Below are positions 3,394 to 43,161 of a DNA stretch of 64,000 nt, piece by piece (position 1 is the stretch's first letter; the number at the start of each line of letters is the position of its first letter). Origin of the DNA: Chitinivibrionales bacterium (GTDB lineage: Bacteria > Fibrobacterota > Chitinivibrionia > Chitinivibrionales > WJKA01); assembly GCA_014728295.1 (NCBI GenBank), contig WJLW01000083.1, positions 149,860-213,859 on the forward strand. Reading direction: 5' to 3'. The notes below the pieces were generated by a model. It made no database searches, had not been told where the DNA came from, and saw nothing but the letters and a program-made list of their open reading frames with translations. Both the position numbers and the translations under genes were made by a program.

Positions 3394-3503
3394 GATTGTG
3401 TGGTATTTGCCATACACACCGGCTGGAGACGGGATGCGCCCGGTCTACTCCGCCTGGCCATGAATCATCACCCCGGCTATGACTTGCATCTGTAAGAGCA
3501 TTC

Positions 3504-4136
3504 TTACCCACGGAATATCTCCCCTACTTTCTTCGCTACCGCTTCCCCCAGCTTGCGCTGCTCGGGCGCCTCGAGATGGATTCCGTCAATCGGGGATGAA
3601 TTCACATGATCTCCTGCATTCAGATAATAACACCCCTGCAGCTCCGCAATCTGGCGGTAATATTTGTCAAACAGCTTCGACTTCTCCTCGCCATTGGCAA
3701 AGTTGTCGGCATAGCCGGTCAACTTTCCGAAGGAAGGCGGAGCAATAAGCAGCACGATGGGCGCCTTGCCGTTGATGCCGGTGTCACTTGCCTGGATGAT
3801 CGTCACGAGCTTGCCGGCGCCTTGGGCGACGTCGATAGGAGCGGCGCTAAAGCGAGTTTTCAGATCATTCGTCCCCAGCATAACAGCTACCAGATCGAGC
3901 GGCTTGTGCGACTCGATGCAGGCAGGAAGATAGGTCAGGCCGTTTTTATGCGCGCCCTCGAATGGATCGTCACGCATGGTCGTTCTGCCGTTCAGGCCTT
4001 CGGGAATGATTTTGTAATCTGTTCCCAGCCAGCGTTGCAGGATGCAAACCCAGCGGTCCTCTTCGGCAAAACGCCGTGAGGTGGCGGGATTATAGCCCCA
4101 GGTATTCGAATCGCCATAGCAAAGGATGGAAATCAT
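3504..4136 (-). CDS. SGNH/GDSL-family hydrolase (arylesterase/lipase-like)
   Basis: An ATG at 4134-4136 (complement) starts MISILCYGDSNTWGY, the GDS(N) catalytic-serine block I. The GTND block III is present in VMLGTNDL. A GGAGAG Shine-Dalgarno sequence lies upstream. The longer track ORF to 4220 is probably an N-terminal over-extension. Confidence 0.75.
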   Translation of the reverse strand: MISILCYGDSNTWGYNPATSRRFAEEDRWVCILQRWLGTDYKIIPEGLNGRTTMRDDPFEGAHKNGLTYLPACIESHKPLDLVAVMLGTNDLKTRFSAAPIDVAQGAGKLVTIIQASDTGINGKAPIVLLIAPPSFGKLTGYADNFANGEEKSKLFDKYYRQIAELQGCYYLNAGDHVNSSPIDGIHLEAPEQRKLGEAVAKKVGEIFRG

Positions 4137-4203
4137 AACAATCTCTCCGGCAAAAATGCATAGACCAGAAACAGGAAGGTAATGAATATAATCTGTTGAT
4201 TGC

Positions 4204-5040
4204 TTATTGGGGGACGGCAACTGCCAGCACCGGGCAAGTGACGTGCTTGAGTACCTGCTCGGTAATACTGCCGGTAATTTTCTGCGGAAGCGTGTCGCGG
4301 CCGTTGGTGGTCATGACGATGAGATCCGCCTTTCTCGCTTCTGTCTGCCGGTTGATCAGCGAAACGATATTCTCACTGTAGGTTTCTTCCTGCCAGTAAG
4401 GCATCAGATTATTGGGGATCGTAACTTCGGGGAAAGACCGGCCGTCGTGGATGCCGATGATTTGCGGAGATGATTTGAGCAACGGTAAGGTCTTGCTCAG
4501 AAACATCAGCCCGTCGAATGCAAAAGGGAAATCGGCCGTCGGAAGCAGGATCGTGTCAAGCCTGATGTCGCCTGTGTCAAAGTCGACAAAACCGCGGCAG
4601 TCCTCGGGAATATACAACGTGGTCTGTCGAAAAGTGTTAACCAGAAAGGAAGTAAGATCGCTGCCGAACAGGCGTCCGAAGGTTCGCCTCGGATTGAGGC
4701 CGATCACCAATAAATCATTATCATGTTTGGTGAAACGCTTTTTGATAACTTTTTTGTAGTTATTGCTTGCACGCAGCTTTTTTACCGAGATGCCCAGTCC
4801 ACTCACCGCATCCCGCGAACTGCTTTCGGGCAGCCAGCCCCACTTCTCGTACATGCTGCGTACGCTGAAATCGGGCACGTCATCGCTGTGCGGACGCACG
4901 TCGACAATTTCGATGGTTCCCTGGAACGCGACGGCCAGGCGCAGGGCATGCGCAAATGCATTGATGGAAGAGTCGTGTTCGTGAATGATGTGACTGGTGC
5001 GCAGAGGCGTCTCATTGGGGCTAACATCTTCTCCTGCCAT
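4204..5040 (-). CDS. Tandem universal stress protein (UspA-family) domains
   Basis: Two USP-like halves are visible: HIIHEHDSS...LLVIG and LIVMTTNGR...ITGSITEQVLKHVTCPVLAV (an ATP-binding G-x2-G-x9-G-S/T-like motif). The ATG lies at 5038-5040. Confidence 0.65.
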   Translation of the reverse strand: MAGEDVSPNETPLRTSHIIHEHDSSINAFAHALRLAVAFQGTIEIVDVRPHSDDVPDFSVRSMYEKWGWLPESSSRDAVSGLGISVKKLRASNNYKKVIKKRFTKHDNDLLVIGLNPRRTFGRLFGSDLTSFLVNTFRQTTLYIPEDCRGFVDFDTGDIRLDTILLPTADFPFAFDGLMFLSKTLPLLKSSPQIIGIHDGRSFPEVTIPNNLMPYWQEETYSENIVSLINRQTEARKADLIVMTTNGRDTLPQKITGSITEQVLKHVTCPVLAVAVPQ

Positions 5041-5087: not shown

Positions 5088-8000
5088 TTACGTTGTACGG
5101 CGCTTGTACAGCGTTACCTGCTTGTAATCGGCCGTCAGGTCGAAAGCTGCGCGCAAAGCGTCGAGGTAGGGGCTCGATATGGCGGGATCATTGTTGATTG
5201 TTTCGACAACGATGCGCGCACGCGGCTGGAAGCTCCGGGAAAGCAGATGATGCAACGGCGCAAAATATCTGGTGAGGTCGGGATCGGTACTGTCCGGTTT
5301 GATGCGTAGATTTTTGCCGTTCTTACGCGAAATCAATACCGGTTCAATGCCGTGCATGACGACATGGCTGCTTTCCAGTCGGTGCGGCAGCTTTCCCCTG
5401 AGTTGGGCAAGACCAAGACCGCACAGGGAAGCCGGATCGGTGGCATTGAACCAGTAAATGCGATCATCGTCCTTGAGCCGCTGCAGCGATCGCAAAGCGC
5501 GGTGTGAAATAAACTGCGGCCCGGGTATGCCCTCGAAAAAGTAGCCGGAGGTAATTTCACCCGACAGTTCCATAATACGCAAGGTGCGAAATATCGATCG
5601 CCACTGAAAGGATGCCGATTCGCGGGCAAGCAGTTCCCGGAAGAGAATGCCGTAGCGTTCGAGCAGAATGCGTACCCGATCCTTATTGTTTTCCTCCGCA
5701 TCAATCGGATCGTTTGCGTTCCGGTCAACCGGCAGTGCGTACCAGTTGCCGGCAAAGGGGGTCGATGCTTTCCAGCGGGCAAAGCCCCGGCGAGTTGTGC
5801 GCGGGTCGGCATGCTGGTGATGTGCGTCGGCCGGTTGTGCGCCAAACCCGGATTGTATTCCCTTGCGAACGGCAGCGTAACTGTCGTTAACCAGAACTCC
5901 GGCCCAGACGAGATCCCACAATCTGCGCGCCAGTTCGTCGCTGCGCATTCCGGTATGACGCACCAGTGCTGCAAAGTCGTGCTTGCCCAAACCGGCGGGA
6001 ATAAGCTCGTCAAGCTCATCAGGCCTGGATTGCACATGCGCGAGCAGGGAAATATCGCCATCGAATCCAAATGTCAAGCTTGGCCTGCCGGCGCCGAACC
6101 AGGCAGCATCACTTTCCTGCATGACGGCGTCGAGCCAGGCCGTATCGTACCGCGCGATTCGTGCGGGGAAGATGTCGGACTCCCATGCTTTGGCGGGAGC
6201 TGGATAGCCGGTTAGCTGCTCGATGGTTTCATACACACCGGTGGTTGCCTGGCGAAGTGAGATCAATCCCTGCCGATGGGCCAGAAACTGCTGCAGTGCG
6301 ATGAGCGGGCACGGCGCAATGTGTGGTACGGCGTCGGCACGCTGTATGCGCAACATTATTTCAAAATTGCGGCTGTCACACAAGTACACCGAATCGTCGG
6401 CTTCGAGCAACCGGCCGCAAACCAGGGTTTGCGCGTCGGTCAAAGCTTCGATGCAATGCGACCCTCGCCCCCGGGATATCTGCAAGTTCTGGCTCACAAA
6501 GTCAACGTCCACCGGCCCGTAATACTGCAGCCAGGTTGCGATAATCGAAGTCACTTCCTCATCGGCATCGGTTTCTGCGTCATGCGCGATGGGGAGCATA
6601 TCGAAAACATCGCCTGCAATCCCGGTTAGTGCAATAAGCGACGGATCCCAGCCGCATCCGTGAGTCAGTCGCGGCAGCGCTTCACGTGCGGCAATTATGT
6701 CCAGGTCCAACTGCATTGAGCGAATTCTCACCAGTTTGGGAGCTGCCTCATCAATCCAGCCGCATTCGTCCTGCTGGTCCAGCCTGATCCGTTCAAGCAT
6801 TATTTCCCATTCGCCAAACGGCACGGCAATGCGTTCCTTGACCCATTCGATCAGCTCGACGGGGGAATCCGGTGCATAGCCCGGCGCCAGGCGTTGCCGC
6901 TTGCGTACAAACTCCTGCACGATGCCGGGCTTAAGCGACGGGCGAAGGCCGGGCGAGAACACAACGTCGCGCAAAATATCATCGCTGAGCTGTGACGGTT
7001 TGCCTTCGGCAGGATCGTCGCGCTGGTACATGTATTGATTGATCTGGTTCCAGGCAATGCCGGCGGCCATCGGGCCGGGGCTTGTGGTATGGGTTTCGCT
7101 CCAGGCAATGTGGCCGCCGGCCAGTTCGCTAAGCACCAGGCGCAAACCGTCGAGATCAAACTCGTCCTGCAGGCAGGTTCGCCACGCTTCGAGGAGCATG
7201 GGAAAGTCATGATAATTCGAGACGGCCTGCAGCAGCTTCTGTGAGCGCAGACGATTCATCCATAGCGGCAGACGGTGTTTTATGCGGTTTCTGGTGACGA
7301 GCAGGGCGCGCCCGGCGCATTCCCGAAAGCGTGCGCCGAAAAAGCCTGAACCCTCGAGTCGCGTGCGCAGCAGCGATTCGAGATTCTCCGGCGTGACCAG
7401 CGACAAAAATTCCTCTCCCCTGATTTCATGCGGTAGTTGCATGACAACCGAGTCGTTTTCGGGAAAAATTTCGGCGCGGTGCTTGAATGCCTGTTCCCAC
7501 GCAGTATCGAGAGCCAGGGCAAACGGTCGATTAACCCGTCCGCCCCAGAACGTATGCAGCACAACCTGGTTGCCGGGTGCTCCACCCGGCCCGCGGGCGA
7601 TATGCTCGATCACGACGTGGTGACGATGCGGCAGGGCAACACCGGTCGCTTCTTTCTGTCGCTTGAGAAAGTCAATGAGCTGCTGCGCCGCAACGCCGTC
7701 CATGCAATGACGCTTTTCAAGTTCGGCCCGAAAGGAGCGGTCCCCGATCAGGTCATTGGCATGTTCGAGAAACTCCCCGATCGCAGATGAAAAGTGGAAG
7801 TCACGATTGAGCGATTCGCCTACCCAGAAGGGAATTTCCGTGCTGTGCGGGCCTGCGGCCGAGACGAATACATCGTTGTGGGTAATCTGCTCGATGCGCC
7901 ACTTCTGGGTTCCCAGAGTAAACGCATCACCGATTTTGGCTTCCCAGACAAACTCTTCATCCAGATCGCCGATGCGTGCATTGCTCTGCTGGTGACGGAG

Positions 8001-38170: not shown

Positions 38171-39850
38171 TCAGAGCCCCGAAATCGACACCTCTTTTGG
38201 ATATTTTATGGAGAACCAAAGCGGGATTTTTACTTCCTGTCCCGGCTGAAGCTTGAAGAACCATTCGAGATAGTTATGTTCGTTCATTTTGAGCGCATCG
38301 GTTGGTTCCCGGTAATCGGGTTCAATGAGTTTAACTTCGATTTGTTCGTTATTGGAGATGGGGATTTGATCCCAGACGACAATTTCTTCGCTCGTTTTTT
38401 TATTGTTGATGAGGCCAATCCGGTATTCGTAGATGAACCTGGTTTTTGACTGGATGCCTTCCTGTTTGCGATAGCGCTTGAGCAGCTTGTGTTCGACGCT
38501 AATGGCATCGTCGACACCCAGGAAGGTCCAGAACTCCTCGGTCGGGGCGACGAGCTCCATCTTTGAATTGGCAACAAAAGCGTTATCGAGAAAGACATTC
38601 GTCGGTCCGGCCAGAAAGGGATATTCGGTTGAGTTGGTAGCTTTTGCTTTGAGATAGGCGTGCTGGGCGAGCTTGGGTACGGTGGAGTAGCGGAAGTGGG
38701 CGGGAAACTCGTGCGTGGTGATGGTGACGGTGTGGGGATTGTTGTCGCTTTTGATGGTAGTCGCACCGCGCGGGACAAACACAACCGATGTCGAACGTTG
38801 TTCTACGGATGCGGTTGCAACTTCCAGAGGAGCGGGGCTGGAAGCAAGCATGTCTGCTCGATCCTCCTCAAGTGCTTCGGCTTCTTCCATCCTGTTCATC
38901 ATTTGCGGCATGGGCGCAGACGCTTTTTTCATCACGCCTTGCTTCAGCGTCCGGCTGATTGCGCGCGGGTGGTGCACATTCAGGTACCAGGGATGCAACT
39001 CGGGATGCTTGCCGCCGACCTGCGGCTGCGCAGTCGAAAGCTGCACCGTGACATTGTCCCAGTCTTCATTCGTATTTTGCACGACCTTGCCTTTGTAAAC
39101 CACTTCCATAATCCGCTTCTTAGAATCGACCCGAATATCATACAGAGGAATCCATGACGGCCCGTAAATGATATAGCTCAAACGCAGCGCGATTTTGCCG
39201 GCCTGTCTGACGTTAATTCTGGCTTCAACCCGGTTAAGCAGTTTCTGCCCGGACGGCATGAGTTCGTTCAACTCGCGGCGTATTTTGTCAACGGCACGAT
39301 TGACGGCTCGCTTCTCCAATTCCAGGGAGCGCGCCTGACGATCCAGGCTTTCCAGCTTGTCTCGGTAAAAGCTGACCATTTTCATCCACTTGTCGGGATC
39401 GAGTTCGACAGGAGCTTCTTTTGCGTCGTGCTGAGTGAGGCCGTCGGCGATTTTTTGCACGAATTCCTTTTCCTTGCGTGCATGCGCCTGACGATCCAGG
39501 ATCCAGGCGAGTGAATCCTGCAGCACGGTCTGCTTGTCTTCCAATGCCTTGCGTTTCGGATCGGGGGTTTCGGCGAGCTGTTCGCGGTCAAAGCGGATGT
39601 CGCTGAGTATCGCACTTCCGCTGCCGCTGAGCTGAATGCTGTTACGGTCGATTCGGTCGGGCAGTCCTGCAAAAACCAGCCGGTGCTCGCCGGTCGAAAG
39701 TTGCCTCGAGGCAACTCTGATCACCTGCGCCCGGTCACCGTAAACCGTAACCTCGGCAATTCGCGAATTCAATTCGACAGCGCCGGTAGGTGCGAGTATA
39801 CCGATTGCACTGATCAGGCTCACCTGCAAGCAATTGCGCATCAAAGTCAT
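38171..39850 (-). CDS. DUF4139/DUF4140 (mucoidy-inhibitor MuiA-like) family protein with a signal peptide
   Basis: The N-terminal signal is LISAIGILAPTGAV. The central region is a coiled coil (DRQARSLELEKRAVNRAVDKIRRELNEL). A C-terminal beta-rich domain follows. The protein is about 559 aa. Confidence 0.55.
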   Translation of the reverse strand: MTLMRNCLQVSLISAIGILAPTGAVELNSRIAEVTVYGDRAQVIRVASRQLSTGEHRLVFAGLPDRIDRNSIQLSGSGSAILSDIRFDREQLAETPDPKRKALEDKQTVLQDSLAWILDRQAHARKEKEFVQKIADGLTQHDAKEAPVELDPDKWMKMVSFYRDKLESLDRQARSLELEKRAVNRAVDKIRRELNELMPSGQKLLNRVEARINVRQAGKIALRLSYIIYGPSWIPLYDIRVDSKKRIMEVVYKGKVVQNTNEDWDNVTVQLSTAQPQVGGKHPELHPWYLNVHHPRAISRTLKQGVMKKASAPMPQMMNRMEEAEALEEDRADMLASSPAPLEVATASVEQRSTSVVFVPRGATTIKSDNNPHTVTITTHEFPAHFRYSTVPKLAQHAYLKAKATNSTEYPFLAGPTNVFLDNAFVANSKMELVAPTEEFWTFLGVDDAISVEHKLLKRYRKQEGIQSKTRFIYEYRIGLINNKKTSEEIVVWDQIPISNNEQIEVKLIEPDYREPTDALKMNEHNYLEWFFKLQPGQEVKIPLWFSIKYPKEVSISGL

Positions 39851-39910
39851 AGACGCCTCCGTGTAGGAAAAAGTTGCTGAAATTTAAATTACATCCCTGC
39901 ATACCGGATG

Positions 39911-40170
39911 CTGGGGAATGTTGGGGACGAAAGTTGGGGACGGGGTCAAAAATTACATTATTAACATGCTATGTACAACTCGAACAAAGTATCGCGGCCT
40001 GACCTAGCACGTTCCCCTCTCACAACGAAGAGACTGATGAATATATATGTATTAGGGTACGCACAACATAAAAAGTTCCGCAGGTAACTCAGGTGAAACT
40101 TGTGAGCTTTGGAGTTTGGGACGGGAGCTTTGTGAGCTTTGAGCTTTGGGACGGGGTCAAAAATTATATT
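39911..40170. repeat. Cluster of short G-rich direct repeats (TTGGGGAC; GAGCTTTG) plus two copies of a GGGACGGGGTCAAAAATTA terminal-repeat motif upstream of the Y1 transposase gene
   Basis: The repeats ctggggaatgttggggacgaaagttggggacgggg and gagctttggagtttgggacgggagctttgtgagctttgagctttgggacgggg are visible. Copy 1 (39934-40020) carries a roughly 75%-identical degenerate duplicate of the first about 46 nt of the transposase CDS. Confidence 0.6.
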
Positions 40171-41162
40171 ATCAACATGCCACGTAAAGCTCGTATAGAT
40201 TATCCCGGCCTAACCCTCCACGTAATGGCGCACACCTTTGATAAAATGCTGCTCTTTAGAGACAACTGCGACAAAAAGCAGTATTTATCCTATTTATCAA
40301 AACGCATTCATGAAACCGGCTGTATCTGTTTCGCCTGGGCATTAATGAATAACCACCTGCATTTGTTGATTAAAACCAGCGAGAATCCTTTGTGGAGCCT
40401 TATGCGGCCTTTGCAAAGCGAATATTCCCGCTATTACAATAAAAAATACCAGCGCAAAGGTCCGCTGTTTCACGATAGATATAAATCAATCGCAACGCAG
40501 GACCAGCTCTATCTTGAGCAGTTGGTTTGCTATATCCATCTCAATCCGATTCGTGCCGGCATCTGCAAAACGCTCAAATCTCTTCGCCGCTATCGCTGGT
40601 CCGGGCATGCCTGTCTGATGGGCGTCTACCCTAATGATTTTCAGGACAGCAAAACTGTTCAAAAAAGATTTGGTAAAACGCCGTCGTCAGCCCGTGCAGC
40701 ATATGAGCAAATGTTGCGCAAGCAACTGCACACTCCCGTTGAAGATGATCTCACCGGCAACGTTCGCCGGAGCAATAAAGGAACGAAAAGCAAAACGTCG
40801 CCTGAGATCTGGGTCATCGGGGACGCTAAATTCCAAAAATCAGTAATAAAAAAGGACATCGACCAAAAACTAACGATTGCACGATTCAAAAGGGAAGGGA
40901 TTGACTTGCACGGCCTATTGGTCCGGGTCGCCAGCAAAATGAACGTGCCTGAAGAGCTGATAGTATTTGCTTCGAAACGTACCGCGCAGGCTGAAGCTCG
41001 AAAAGTGTTTTGCTATTTTGCCGGTATGCTTCAATTTCCCACGCGTCAAACAGCAGCGTTTCTGGGCATCCAGCAGGCGGCAGTGACCAATGCCGCTCGG
41101 CAGGGAAGAATAATTGTGCAACAATCCAGCCTGACAATAATATAATTTTTGACCCCGTCCCC
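40146..41162 (+). mobile_element. IS200/RAYT-like unit: Y1 HUH transposase gene bounded by 21-23 bp inverted repeats
   Basis: The left IR is gggacggggtcaaaaattatatt (40148-40170). The right IR is aatataatttttgaccccgtcccc (41138-41161), a near-perfect reverse complement. A single ORF lies between them. Confidence 0.5.
40177..41145 (+). CDS. REP-associated tyrosine transposase (RAYT, IS200-like Y1/HUH) with a C-terminal DnaA-C-like HTH domain
   Basis: The ATG at 40177 starts MPRKARIDYPGLTLHV. The HUH motif is NNHLHLLIK. The catalytic Tyr region is YIHLNPIRAGIC, matching the RAYT pattern YIxxNPxRAGL. The C-terminus (ELIVFASKRTAQAEARKVFCYFAGMLQ) is DnaA-domain-IV-like. The track ORF from 40093 translates the repeat region and is rejected. 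Confidence 0.8.
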   Translation: MPRKARIDYPGLTLHVMAHTFDKMLLFRDNCDKKQYLSYLSKRIHETGCICFAWALMNNHLHLLIKTSENPLWSLMRPLQSEYSRYYNKKYQRKGPLFHDRYKSIATQDQLYLEQLVCYIHLNPIRAGICKTLKSLRRYRWSGHACLMGVYPNDFQDSKTVQKRFGKTPSSARAAYEQMLRKQLHTPVEDDLTGNVRRSNKGTKSKTSPEIWVIGDAKFQKSVIKKDIDQKLTIARFKREGIDLHGLLVRVASKMNVPEELIVFASKRTAQAEARKVFCYFAGMLQFPTRQTAAFLGIQQAAVTNAARQGRIIVQQSSLTII

Positions 41163-41176
41163 AATATCCTTATTCT

Positions 41177-41827
41177 TCACTGCATCTGCACTACCCGCAC
41201 CAGCCGTTGCGTCACACTCTCAACATCGAAGGAAACCGGTACCGTTTCCCGGTGAATTTCACGAAATCCCTCACGCGGAGCATAGGCCCTCTCTCCATCC
41301 GCCAGAAACACCTCCACACCTTTCGCTCGTTGCGCATCAAGAAAGGAGCGCGTTGGTCCGGCTTTGCTGCGTTCGTAAAACATGTCGGCAACGAGGATGA
41401 CATCCGCAGCAACGCCGGTTGATTCCAGCAAATTGCCGGCGGTAAAGTCTGGGTCGACGCCATTTGCTGCGGCATTTTTGCCGGCGACATACAGTGCTAC
41501 CGGATCGATATCATTTGCTTCGACCTGTGCCGCACCTGCCTGGCAGGCTGCAATTGACGGAATCGCTCCGCCGCAGCCAAAATCCAGAACCGATTTGTTG
41601 CGAACCTGGATCGTTCCATTGAGCAGCAACCTGACAATAGCGATTGACGCGGGCCAGATCACGCCCCAGAATGGCGTCTCGCACTCATGTCCGCACTCCT
41701 TCTCCCAGGCCTCCCACAGCGCCATGATGTGCGGGGTGTGATGAGCGCGCACTTGCGCAAACCGGTGAATCGGTGCAAGGGGTGCGTATTGGTTGAGGAA
41801 CACATCCGTCGGATATGTCGGCATCAC
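41177..41827 (-). CDS. Class-I SAM-dependent methyltransferase (small PrmA/Methyltransf_16-like)
   Basis: VLDFGCGGAIPSIAACQAGAAQVEANDIDP matches motif I plus post-I of Rossmann MTases. Its stop overlaps the start of the downstream response-regulator gene by 4 nt. Confidence 0.65.
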   Translation of the reverse strand: MMPTYPTDVFLNQYAPLAPIHRFAQVRAHHTPHIMALWEAWEKECGHECETPFWGVIWPASIAIVRLLLNGTIQVRNKSVLDFGCGGAIPSIAACQAGAAQVEANDIDPVALYVAGKNAAANGVDPDFTAGNLLESTGVAADVILVADMFYERSKAGPTRSFLDAQRAKGVEVFLADGERAYAPREGFREIHRETVPVSFDVESVTQRLVRVVQMQ

Positions 41828-43161
41828 GTCTCGATTCCGTGCGTATTCATTTTCGAATACAACGCGCGCCGGGAAATACCCAGCAGCTTGGCGGCGTTCG
41901 TCTTGTTGCCCTGCGCCAGACTCAGCGCCTGCAGAATAAAATTTTTTTCCACTTCGTCAAGAGCAATTCCCTCGGCGGGCAGCAAATAATTGTTGGCGCT
42001 TTGCTGCGTTTGACCGGTCGCGATGTGTTCGGGCAGGTGAACTGCCTCGATGCAGGTTCCGGCGGACATAATGACGGCGCGCTCGATGGTGTTTTCGAGC
42101 TCGCGTACATTGCCGGGCCAGGCATAGGCCCGTAACTTGTCTGTCGCAATTGCGCTGATGCCGGCGACATGATGAAGCTTCAGCATGAAATACTCGACCA
42201 GCGGGGGAACGTCGTCGCTGCGTTGTGCAAGTGGCGGGATCCGTATCGGGAAGACGTTGAGGCGATAATACAAATCGTTGCGAAAGGCGCCGTCCTGTTG
42301 GGCCTGCTCCAGATTTTTATTGGTTGCCGCGATGACCCGCGCATCGGTGTGCAGCGTTTCTGCGCCGCCAACCCGCGTAAACTCCCGCTCCTGCAACACG
42401 CGCAGCAATTTCACCTGCAGGTTCAGCGAGATATCGCCGATTTCGTCCAGAAACACCGTCCCGCTTCCCGCCCGCTCGAACAAACCGGTTTTGCGATCAT
42501 GTGCACCGGTAAAGGAGCCTTTTTCGTGGCCGAACAATTCGGATTCCAGCAGCGTCTCGGTAAGTGCGGCGCAATTGATCGCCGTAAAGCCTTTGCGGCC
42601 GCTTTCGACATGGATGCCGCGGGCGATCAGCTCTTTGCCGGTTCCGCTTTTGCCACGAATCAGAACCGTAGTATCGCGTCCGGCGACAATTTTAGCCTGG
42701 CTGATAACCTCCAGCATTGCCGGGGAACGCGTGATGAGTCTGTCAAGGCTGTAGCGCTCCTGCACGTCATTTTTGAGGCCGTTCAATTCCAGCTTGAGTG
42801 AATGATTACCGAGAGCGGATTTAACCAGCAGCAGCATTTCATCCATCTCGAAGGGCTTGGCCACATATTCCATAGCGCCGTTGCGCATGGCGTCGATGCC
42901 GCTCTTGGCGTCGGCATAGGCAGTCATGACGATACATTCGATACCGGGATGCCTGCTTCTGATTTGCTTGACAAGCTCAACGCCGTCCATGCCGGGCATG
43001 CGAACATCGGTAATAATGACATCGGGAATCGCCCTGAGCAGGTAATCCAACGCCGCTTCCGCCGAATCCGCCTCGTCAATATCGTAGCCCTCGGCATCCA
43101 GAGCCATGGCCAGCAGGGCGCGCATTTTGCCTTCATCGTCAACAATCAGGATTTTTGCCAT
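41824..43161 (-). CDS. Sigma-54-dependent response regulator (NtrC family: REC + AAA+ + Fis-type HTH)
   Basis: The REC domain is MAKILIVDDE...DVRMPGMDG. Walker A is GKSGTGKE. GAFTGA appears as GSFTGA. Walker B is TVFLDEIGD. The arginine finger region is WPGNVRELEN. The C-terminal HTH is NAAKLLGISRRALYSKM. Confidence 0.9.
   Translation of the reverse strand: MAKILIVDDEGKMRALLAMALDAEGYDIDEADSAEAALDYLLRAIPDVIITDVRMPGMDGVELVKQIRSRHPGIECIVMTAYADAKSGIDAMRNGAMEYVAKPFEMDEMLLLVKSALGNHSLKLELNGLKNDVQERYSLDRLITRSPAMLEVISQAKIVAGRDTTVLIRGKSGTGKELIARGIHVESGRKGFTAINCAALTETLLESELFGHEKGSFTGAHDRKTGLFERAGSGTVFLDEIGDISLNLQVKLLRVLQEREFTRVGGAETLHTDARVIAATNKNLEQAQQDGAFRNDLYYRLNVFPIRIPPLAQRSDDVPPLVEYFMLKLHHVAGISAIATDKLRAYAWPGNVRELENTIERAVIMSAGTCIEAVHLPEHIATGQTQQSANNYLLPAEGIALDEVEKNFILQALSLAQGNKTNAAKLLGISRRALYSKMNTHGIET

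Follow-up and report, generated by a model that had tools for sequence, protein, structure and literature searches.

The 64-kb window, i.e. the whole stretch of DNA analysed here, carries one intact element, and we conclude that this locus is very likely a TIRtron, a single TIRYT gene tightly enclosed by two 25-bp terminal inverted repeats. The element belongs to an already published class and is not a new system. In the original description (Di Nocera, De Gregorio & Rocco 2013, BMC Genomics 14:522; PMC3733652), RAYT-like genes located between terminal inverted repeats (TIRs) are named TIRtrons and their proteins TIRYTs; the repeats share the motif GGGGWSAS, may overlap the ends of the coding sequence, and form families in only some genomes, where they stand singly, as dimers or in groups. 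In a later survey (Quentin et al. 2018, BMC Genomics 19:475; PMC6006769), TIRYTs are placed in subclass 2.1 of the TnpA_REP-like HUH proteins; in its subgroup 2.1.2 the C-terminus resembles Bac_DnaA_C, HTH_23 or HTH_28 and REPs are not located nearby, and the equivalent subclass is present in 14.9% of strains.

An earlier note on this DNA had described the gene as coding for a RAYT-like Y1/HUH transposase with a DnaA-C-like HTH, flanked by inverted repeats and preceded by a degenerate copy (hereafter ghost) of its own 5′ end and by short direct repeats. All of these features were recovered in the present analysis, well above what chance would produce. The open reading frame is listed at 40093-41145; the actual start is the ATG at 40177, yielding a protein of 322 aa encoded on the forward strand (40177-41145, stop codon TAA at 41143-41145). 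This protein is 100% identical to hypothetical protein GF398_14870 of a Chitinivibrionales MAG, found on a single 249-kb contig. The HUH/Y1 domain was detected with Pfam Y1_Tnp (E 2.7e-11) at residues 12-121 (40210-40539), including the HUH residues in the motif H60-L-H62 (40354-40362) and the catalytic Tyr Y119 (40531-40533) in the motif Y119-IHLNPIRAG. H60, H62 and Y119 were invariant in 60 homologues of the window protein, as was R275, which by our own reading of the HMMER alignment with the family profile stands opposite the minor-groove arginine of DnaA. Judged from the invariance of these residues, the transposase looks intact.

The C-terminal DnaA-domain-IV-like HTH was located at approximately residues 237-317 (40885-41127) by means of the family profile and the predicted fold. 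Pfam finds no DnaA-like C-terminus in the window protein alone; among the 60 homologues, Bac_DnaA_C (PF08299) was matched individually by 46, and HTH_23 by 6. When the family profile was compared with DnaA domain IV, positions 237-317 matched Aquifex and E. coli DnaA (E 6e-5 and 0.011). The AlphaFold model of the window protein, calculated with the 60 homologues as input, was confident (pLDDT 87), and its C-terminal helices resembled the DnaA DNA-binding domain 3PVP (TM 0.67, rmsd 2.8 A over 78 columns). The top solved structure in the Foldseek search with this model was E. coli TnpA_REP on a REP hairpin (4ER8, E 2e-5), followed by the TnpA proteins of IS200, ISDra2 and IS608.

The terminal inverted repeats were found at 40145-40172 on the forward strand, ending 4 nt short of the ATG, and at 41137-41164 on the reverse strand, covering the last codons and the stop codon. 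The two pair with each other over 28 nt at 96% identity and include a perfect 25-nt core, GGGACGGGGTCAAAAATTATATTAT. This core occurs three times in the 64-kb window versus 0 expected, and all three copies belong to the locus: the copies at 40148-40172 (+) and 41137-41161 (−) are perfect, and that at 39937-39961 (+) carries one mismatch. On sequence grounds, we place the putative boundaries of the element at the repeat tips, 40148 and 41161, which gives a length of 1014 bp from tip to tip. The tips read TTGGGGACGG in the ghost and the right repeat, and TTTGGGACGG in the left repeat. Single-stranded DNA folds of both ends on both strands indicated no end hairpins above shuffled controls (z −0.08 to +0.85), and the ends of the element are plain, non-palindromic terminal inverted repeats. 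Since these ends are devoid of hairpins, the recognition mode of IS608 or of REPs is not simply to be assumed. A search for an empty site found none; the closest homologues of the neighbouring MuiA-family gene are 52-56% identical, and their contigs have no shared synteny with the window. A DnaA box was also considered at the inner edge of the repeat (TTATCAACA, 8/9 to TTATNCACA), and was dropped as a family feature because the family shows no conservation at repeat positions 26-29.

The organization of the locus is the same as that of TIRtrons in several respects: TIRs enclose the gene of a RAYT-like Y1 protein that has the HUH motif, the catalytic Tyr and a C-terminal HTH and that exceeds RAYTs in length; these TIRs are able to overlap both the 5′ and 3′ ends of the coding sequence, and they carry a G-rich tip near to GGGGWSAS. 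In BLASTP comparison with the TIRYTs of Additional file 5 of Di Nocera et al., eight of nine were matched at E 1e-13 to 1e-22 with alignments from residue 1, the Acidobacteria-type TIRYT aba 3477 being distant from the window protein (E 0.013); canonical RAYTs gave E 1e-12 to 0.015 with partial alignments only. The protein matches subclass 2.1.2 of Quentin et al. (2018) by its predicted C-terminal extension. There are also differences from the named examples. The host here belongs to Chitinivibrionales/Fibrobacterota, outside those examples, and the tip GGGGACGG agrees with the published motif GGGGWSAS at 7/8 positions, with G for A at position 7.

The element lies between a PrmA-like methyltransferase gene and the MuiA-family gene, antisense to both, and is assembled through inside the 249-kb contig. 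The earlier note had raised the possibility that the repeats are dispersed in a REP/BIME-like manner. In the 64-kb window, the number of copies of the terminal repeat outside the locus was 0, and no other repeat family, tRNA gene or Rfam match was detected there. The GC content of the element is 43-49%, versus 55-58% for the flanks. These findings, i.e. the lone copy in 64 kb, its position inside a 249-kb contig and its lower GC, fit a single, probably horizontally acquired copy.

Upstream of the element, a ghost left repeat is located at 39934-39961 (+), 24/25 identical to the core and also pairing with the right repeat over 37 nt at 89%. It is followed at 39966-40012 (+) by a ghost coding sequence that corresponds to the first 47 nt of the gene, opens with an ATG and meets an in-frame stop at codon 14. 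As a whole, 39934-40012 aligns with 40145-40223 at 80% identity over 79 nt without a gap, so that the ghost stands 211 bp upstream of its counterpart. Beyond the repeat, the ghost matches the element in register at 37/51 bases (binomial p = 2e-12), indicating that the similarity is significant in alignment, and the homology breaks off abruptly at 40012/40223. The spacer at 40013-40099 is unrelated to the element as judged by local alignment against shuffles, and the 132 nt from the ghost to the true left repeat (40013-40144) hold no similarity to the element except for one tip copy. The order in the window is thus ghost, 102 unrelated nt (40013-40114), a tip-only copy, 19 nt and the intact element. 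The sequence TCCCC at 40013-40017, just after the ghost coding sequence, was considered as a remnant of a right-repeat tip; it is too short and is not claimed as such.

Short direct repeats accompany both left repeats. A 13-nt tandem duplication, GAAAGTTGGGGAC (2.1 copies at 39916-39942, +), was detected by TRF and motif scan, and a tip-only partial repeat end, TTGGGGACG, lies at 39921-39929, immediately 5′ of the ghost repeat. A 26-nt repeat of the type 'flank plus tip' (TTGTGAGCTTTG..TTTGGGACGGG) is present twice at 40100-40155 (+), the copies being 88% identical: the first (40100-40125) ends as the tip-only copy (40115-40125), and the second (40130-40155) leads into the true left repeat. 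In addition, TGAGCTT is repeated 2.3 times at 40133-40148. A partial 'flank plus tip' copy thus stands ahead of each left repeat, ghost and true alike. The tip motif TTKGGGACG was found five times in 64 kb, all at the locus, versus 1.05 expected, and a count of five was reached in 0/100 shuffles.

The mismatches of the ghost are unevenly distributed, with 1/25 in the repeat versus 14/51 in the coding-sequence fragment (Fisher p = 0.016), and the fragment shares 34/47 identities with the resident gene versus 26-31/47 with other family members. Given that the repeat is better kept than the coding sequence and that the fragment is only slightly nearer to the resident gene, the ghost may stem from an older or divergent copy, and a recent duplication is not required.

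As to the relatives, 1768 homologues of the window protein were collected at E <= 1e-3, most clusters being represented on one contig each. The 25-nt repeat GGGACGGKGTCAAWWATTAYAYTAT brackets homologues of 50-61% protein identity with unrelated neighbouring genes; in those loci one copy of the repeat GGGACGGTGTCAAATATTAYATTAT precedes the ATG by 4-9 nt, and the other covers the stop codon or follows it closely. The repeat is almost invariant across approximately 50% protein divergence in this subfamily. At 37-43% identity, the tip GGGACGG(T/G)G is retained, and the inner part differs and remains AT-rich. Full elements of the relatives and the window are 1014-1081 bp in length, and in six full elements no target-site duplication was seen.

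The repeat scans employed the exact 21-mer GGGACGGKGTCAAWWATTAYA, a choice that biases which repeat copies were sampled. A scan of 185,579 species genomes, which do not include the source MAG, yielded 22 stretches, nearly all from MAGs of Fibrobacterota, Chitinivibrionales or Chitinispirillaceae; a few in Bacillota and Saprospiraceae resemble chance hits or hits to coding sequence. The same scan of JGI metagenomes yielded 61 stretches. Viral contigs gave no match in the 21-mer scan, and plasmids gave partial matches only, at <38% identity. Repeat positions 22-25 are conserved although they are outside the search pattern, and conservation decays past position 26. Outside the repeats, the flank is rich in A/T, and position −1 is hardly ever C.

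Derivative units are frequent in this family. In one Fibrobacteraceae MAG, the repeat occurs in exact form 10 times, spread over 9 contigs; several of these copies are at the end of a contig, and most are joined to gene fragments. A 99-bp MITE in one locus (L080) consists of the left repeat, about 20 nt of the start of the coding sequence, a short remnant and the right repeat. Genes near-identical to one protein cluster (P0008) were found with at least two left flanks and at least two right flanks, all different. One-repeat units of approximately 80-160 nt recur with flanks differing on both sides; units of one repeat plus a covarying hairpin are seen in other metagenomes, and Rfam gave no match in the loci with this hairpin module. 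The MITEs, the solo ends and the many 5′ ghosts of the relatives indicate real mobility, i.e. that the family is or was mobile.

For about 93 non-redundant repeat ends, the adjoining sequence was classified. Full genes adjoin 17 of them, and 8 are cut by a contig end; 5′ ghosts were found at 11 (the window's own excluded) and 3′ ghosts at 7, 41 have no detectable gene remnant, and 9 are too near a contig end to judge. Five independent ghosts (L019, L042, L026, L011 and L015) show the same arrangement, in which a new GGGACGG tip comes directly after the left repeat and 23-55 nt of coding sequence. The tip in L019 is that of a complete element whose repeat is of another subtype, and the remainder of the old element is absent past the right end of the new one. 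Ghosts of the 5′ end are thus a family trait, and the window represents a looser version of the ghost-plus-tip pattern; it differs from the clearest cases in the relatives by the unrelated 102-nt stretch before the next tip. Tandem duplications of the 'flank plus tip' type, 11-21 nt in length, were found at 6-8 of 89 ends. The enrichment of tip duplications upstream of the ends was not significant (6/89 vs 3.3% background, p = 0.07), and they are only an occasional feature.

What is known of Y1/HUH chemistry and of DnaA domain IV allows a possible sequence of events to be drawn. The HTH would anchor the protein by binding the inner, AT-rich half of each repeat in double-stranded form, and the HUH/Tyr domain would make its nick at the deeply conserved GGGACGG tip or close to it. 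Movement of the element would then proceed without target duplication, and defective copies could be mobilised in trans. Ghosts may arise where a left end already in place draws in another insertion or a deletion next to it. As for the window, earlier events at this spot most likely left the ghost and the tip micro-duplications behind as debris: the ghost might represent a truncated older or divergent copy, or else the product of aberrant one-ended processing of a left end, and the intact copy would have arrived, or remained, approximately 100 bp downstream of it. The earlier note had offered abortive transposition or a partial duplication on the one hand, and a REP-like array on the other, as the origin of the ghost. 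The former is plausible, as ghosts recur in the relatives; the latter finds no support, hairpins being absent.

Three patterns recur in these data: a left repeat plus 20-55 nt of coding sequence abutted by a fresh GGGACGG tip (five independent cases in relatives), the 11-21-nt 'flank plus tip' micro-duplications, and the units of one repeat with a covarying hairpin. It is conceivable, though rather doubtful, that these patterns are footprints of a transposition mode undescribed for Y1/HUH enzymes. In such a mode, the DnaA-like HTH would recognise the duplex repeat, the ends would be processed one by one, and a transposase-bound resident left end would draw the next insertion or an adjacent deletion. 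If this were true, the family would provide the first sequence-level handle on how TIRYTs work. The consulted passages of PMC3733652 and PMC6006769 make no mention of recurrent 5′ ghosts abutted by a new tip or of junction micro-duplications, and the only features that may be new are the ghost-plus-tip architecture and the one-repeat-plus-hairpin units of other metagenomes. TIRYTs form a large HUH/Y1 branch between the selfish IS200/IS605 elements and the domesticated RAYTs, and they join a single-strand nuclease fold to a double-strand DNA-binding domain borrowed from a replication initiator. We found no later experimental work on TIRYTs in the literature. The locus alone adds little; the comparative picture, with a near-invariant 25-bp repeat, fixed length, no target duplication or hairpins, and frequent stubs and MITEs, supplies substrates and predictions for a first biochemical study.

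Alternatively, the ghost and tip repeats could be functional, serving as operators or decoys for the HTH in regulation of the transposase or of the MuiA-family gene. The uneven distribution of mismatches between the ghost repeat and the ghost coding sequence, the tip-only copy ahead of both left repeats, and the position of the ghost in the promoter region of a 559-aa gene are all in line with such a role. However, the length of the ghosts in the relatives varies widely, from 23 to about 390 nt of coding sequence (about 130 codons in L082), as does their spacing; some ghosts are without a partner, and no conserved arrangement is found across loci. A better-kept repeat is also what a ghost of divergent origin within the family would show, as the repeat hardly varies among the members. 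A regulatory function of the ghost is thus considered improbable, and its interpretation as debris of earlier events is preferred.

Each RAYT lineage has its own REPs, which are short hairpins bearing a GTAG-type tag and numbering hundreds of copies. The earlier note had regarded the gene as a possible host-domesticated RAYT with its cognate repeats, so that the inverted repeats and G-rich repeats would be local members of a genome-wide REP/REPIN-like family. The protein indeed shares with RAYTs such as E. coli TnpA_REP (4ER8), the nearest solved structure, the catalytic fold and the HUH and Y..NP.RAG motifs, and REP_Tyr_transpos is its best NCBIfam model; the score of 58.4 bits is, however, below the curated cut-off of 80. 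As in the case of RAYT genes, which are usually single-copy and bracketed by inverted copies of the cognate repeat, the gene is flanked by inverted repeat copies and was seen in a single copy, and some relatives are accompanied by dispersed short repeat units and doublets of about 150 bp. In contrast to REPs, the 25-bp ends are non-palindromic and form no stable hairpin, a dsDNA-binding domain is added to the protein, and neither a further copy nor any other dispersed family is present in the 64-kb window. Moreover, the repeat is not species-specific as a REP would be, being common to different hosts and to homologues only 50-61% identical; the protein is nearer to the named TIRYTs than to RAYTs; and the relatives leave truncated gene copies in the manner of insertion sequences. 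A domesticated RAYT with REP-like repeats is therefore judged very improbable, and since neither the REP/RAYT nor the domestication reading is supported, the locus is better placed in the TIRtron/TIRYT class described in PMC3733652 and PMC6006769.

The earlier note had also considered that many identical copies would point to an ordinary IS200/IS605 element; what was found is one copy, with no IS200-type hairpin ends. Elements of the IS200/IS605 family (IS608, ISDra2) carry subterminal hairpins and no inverted repeats, encode a transposase that lacks an HTH and measures about 130-150 aa, and move by a strand-specific, single-strand 'peel and paste' route that has been shown experimentally. An ordinary insertion sequence of this family is hardly credible here: the compact single-gene form, the Y1 HUH chemistry with its Y1_Tnp domain, the structural neighbourhood of the IS200, IS608 and ISDra2 transposases and the lack of target-site duplication are shared, but the window protein reaches 12.9 bits with the IS200 model NF033573 (cut-off 55), it has a length of 322 aa and an extra HTH domain, tnpB is absent, and the assignment is contradicted by the structure of the ends, which are 25-bp inverted repeats free of subterminal hairpins.

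The duplication of the G-rich tip of the terminal inverted repeat (TIR) together with the adjoining outer DNA was observed in its strongest form at the related loci L005/L006. At 2930-2990, a tandem array of three copies of (ATTTGGGGACGGTG) leads into the left TIR of a homologue that is 43% identical. A local cluster was found in genome GCA_054922515.1 (locus L007), in which the transposase gene is present as two divergent paralogues (P0071 and P0117). One of them is adjoined by a pair of inverted TIR doublets, each about 150 bp long (3993-4141 and 4306-4456), and by a second, degenerate gene copy (5914-6582); clusters of this type were termed dimers or groups by Di Nocera et al.

At locus L019, on its reverse strand, a left end of the TCAAAT type extends exactly 23 nt into its CDS, at which point a complete TIRtron (a transposase gene between TIRs) of a different TIR subtype (GGGACGGTGGTTTTTTAAT...) begins. 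The two tips are located at 2441 and about 2389, and the right end of the complete TIRtron at about 1365. Past this right end, nothing left over from the older element was found; the next feature is a trpE-like gene. A miniature form (MITE) of the TIRtron family, 99 bp in length, is present at 6181-6279 of L080 in a relative, and consists, in this order, of the left TIR, about 20 nt from the beginning of the CDS, a short remnant, and finally the right TIR.

In peat and wetland metagenome contigs, we also observed a short recurring unit of about 135-160 nt, of which both the left and right flanks vary. The 25-nt TIR at one end is followed by about 90 nt, the conserved sequence GCAAKCCAAC and an 8-bp hairpin closed by AAC...GTT. 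Covariation was observed at 6 of the 11 predicted pairs among eight sequences. Such units are located in L055 (about 3430-3586, 840-987 and about 4870-4963), L085 (549-710), L037 (about 1400-1561) and L079 (about 560-693), and further in L084, L050, L033, L034, L072 and L083. An Rfam search of these loci gave no match, and no copy of the motif occurs in the window. The unit could represent a non-autonomous element bounded by a TIR on one side and a hairpin on the other; alternatively, it could be a small structured signal acting as RNA or DNA.

The 21-mer of the TIR was also matched exactly in Bacillota/Clostridiales/Eubacteriales and Saprospiraceae MAGs (L012 5572, L014 2096, L020 66, L028 4181 and L017 4378), none with a transposase nearby. 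Members of two pairs share longer context, suggesting conserved coding sequence; these matches were therefore taken as chance or unrelated.

The window element itself lies antisense to, and between, co-directional host genes, in the order sigma-54-dependent response regulator (41824-43161, minus strand), PrmA-like methyltransferase (41177-41827, minus) and DUF4140/DUF4139 (MuiA-family) protein (38171-39850, minus). Because of this arrangement, the MuiA-family gene may be separated from upstream transcription. Reading outward, TTGACC lies within the right TIR and TATTCT follows after 16 nt (41149-41176, plus strand), which together resemble a promoter that faces outward and would read the 3' end of the methyltransferase gene in antisense. 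The count of promoter-like sites in the region is no higher than in shuffles; at the position of TTGACC, the TCAAAT subfamily carries a perfect TTGACA.
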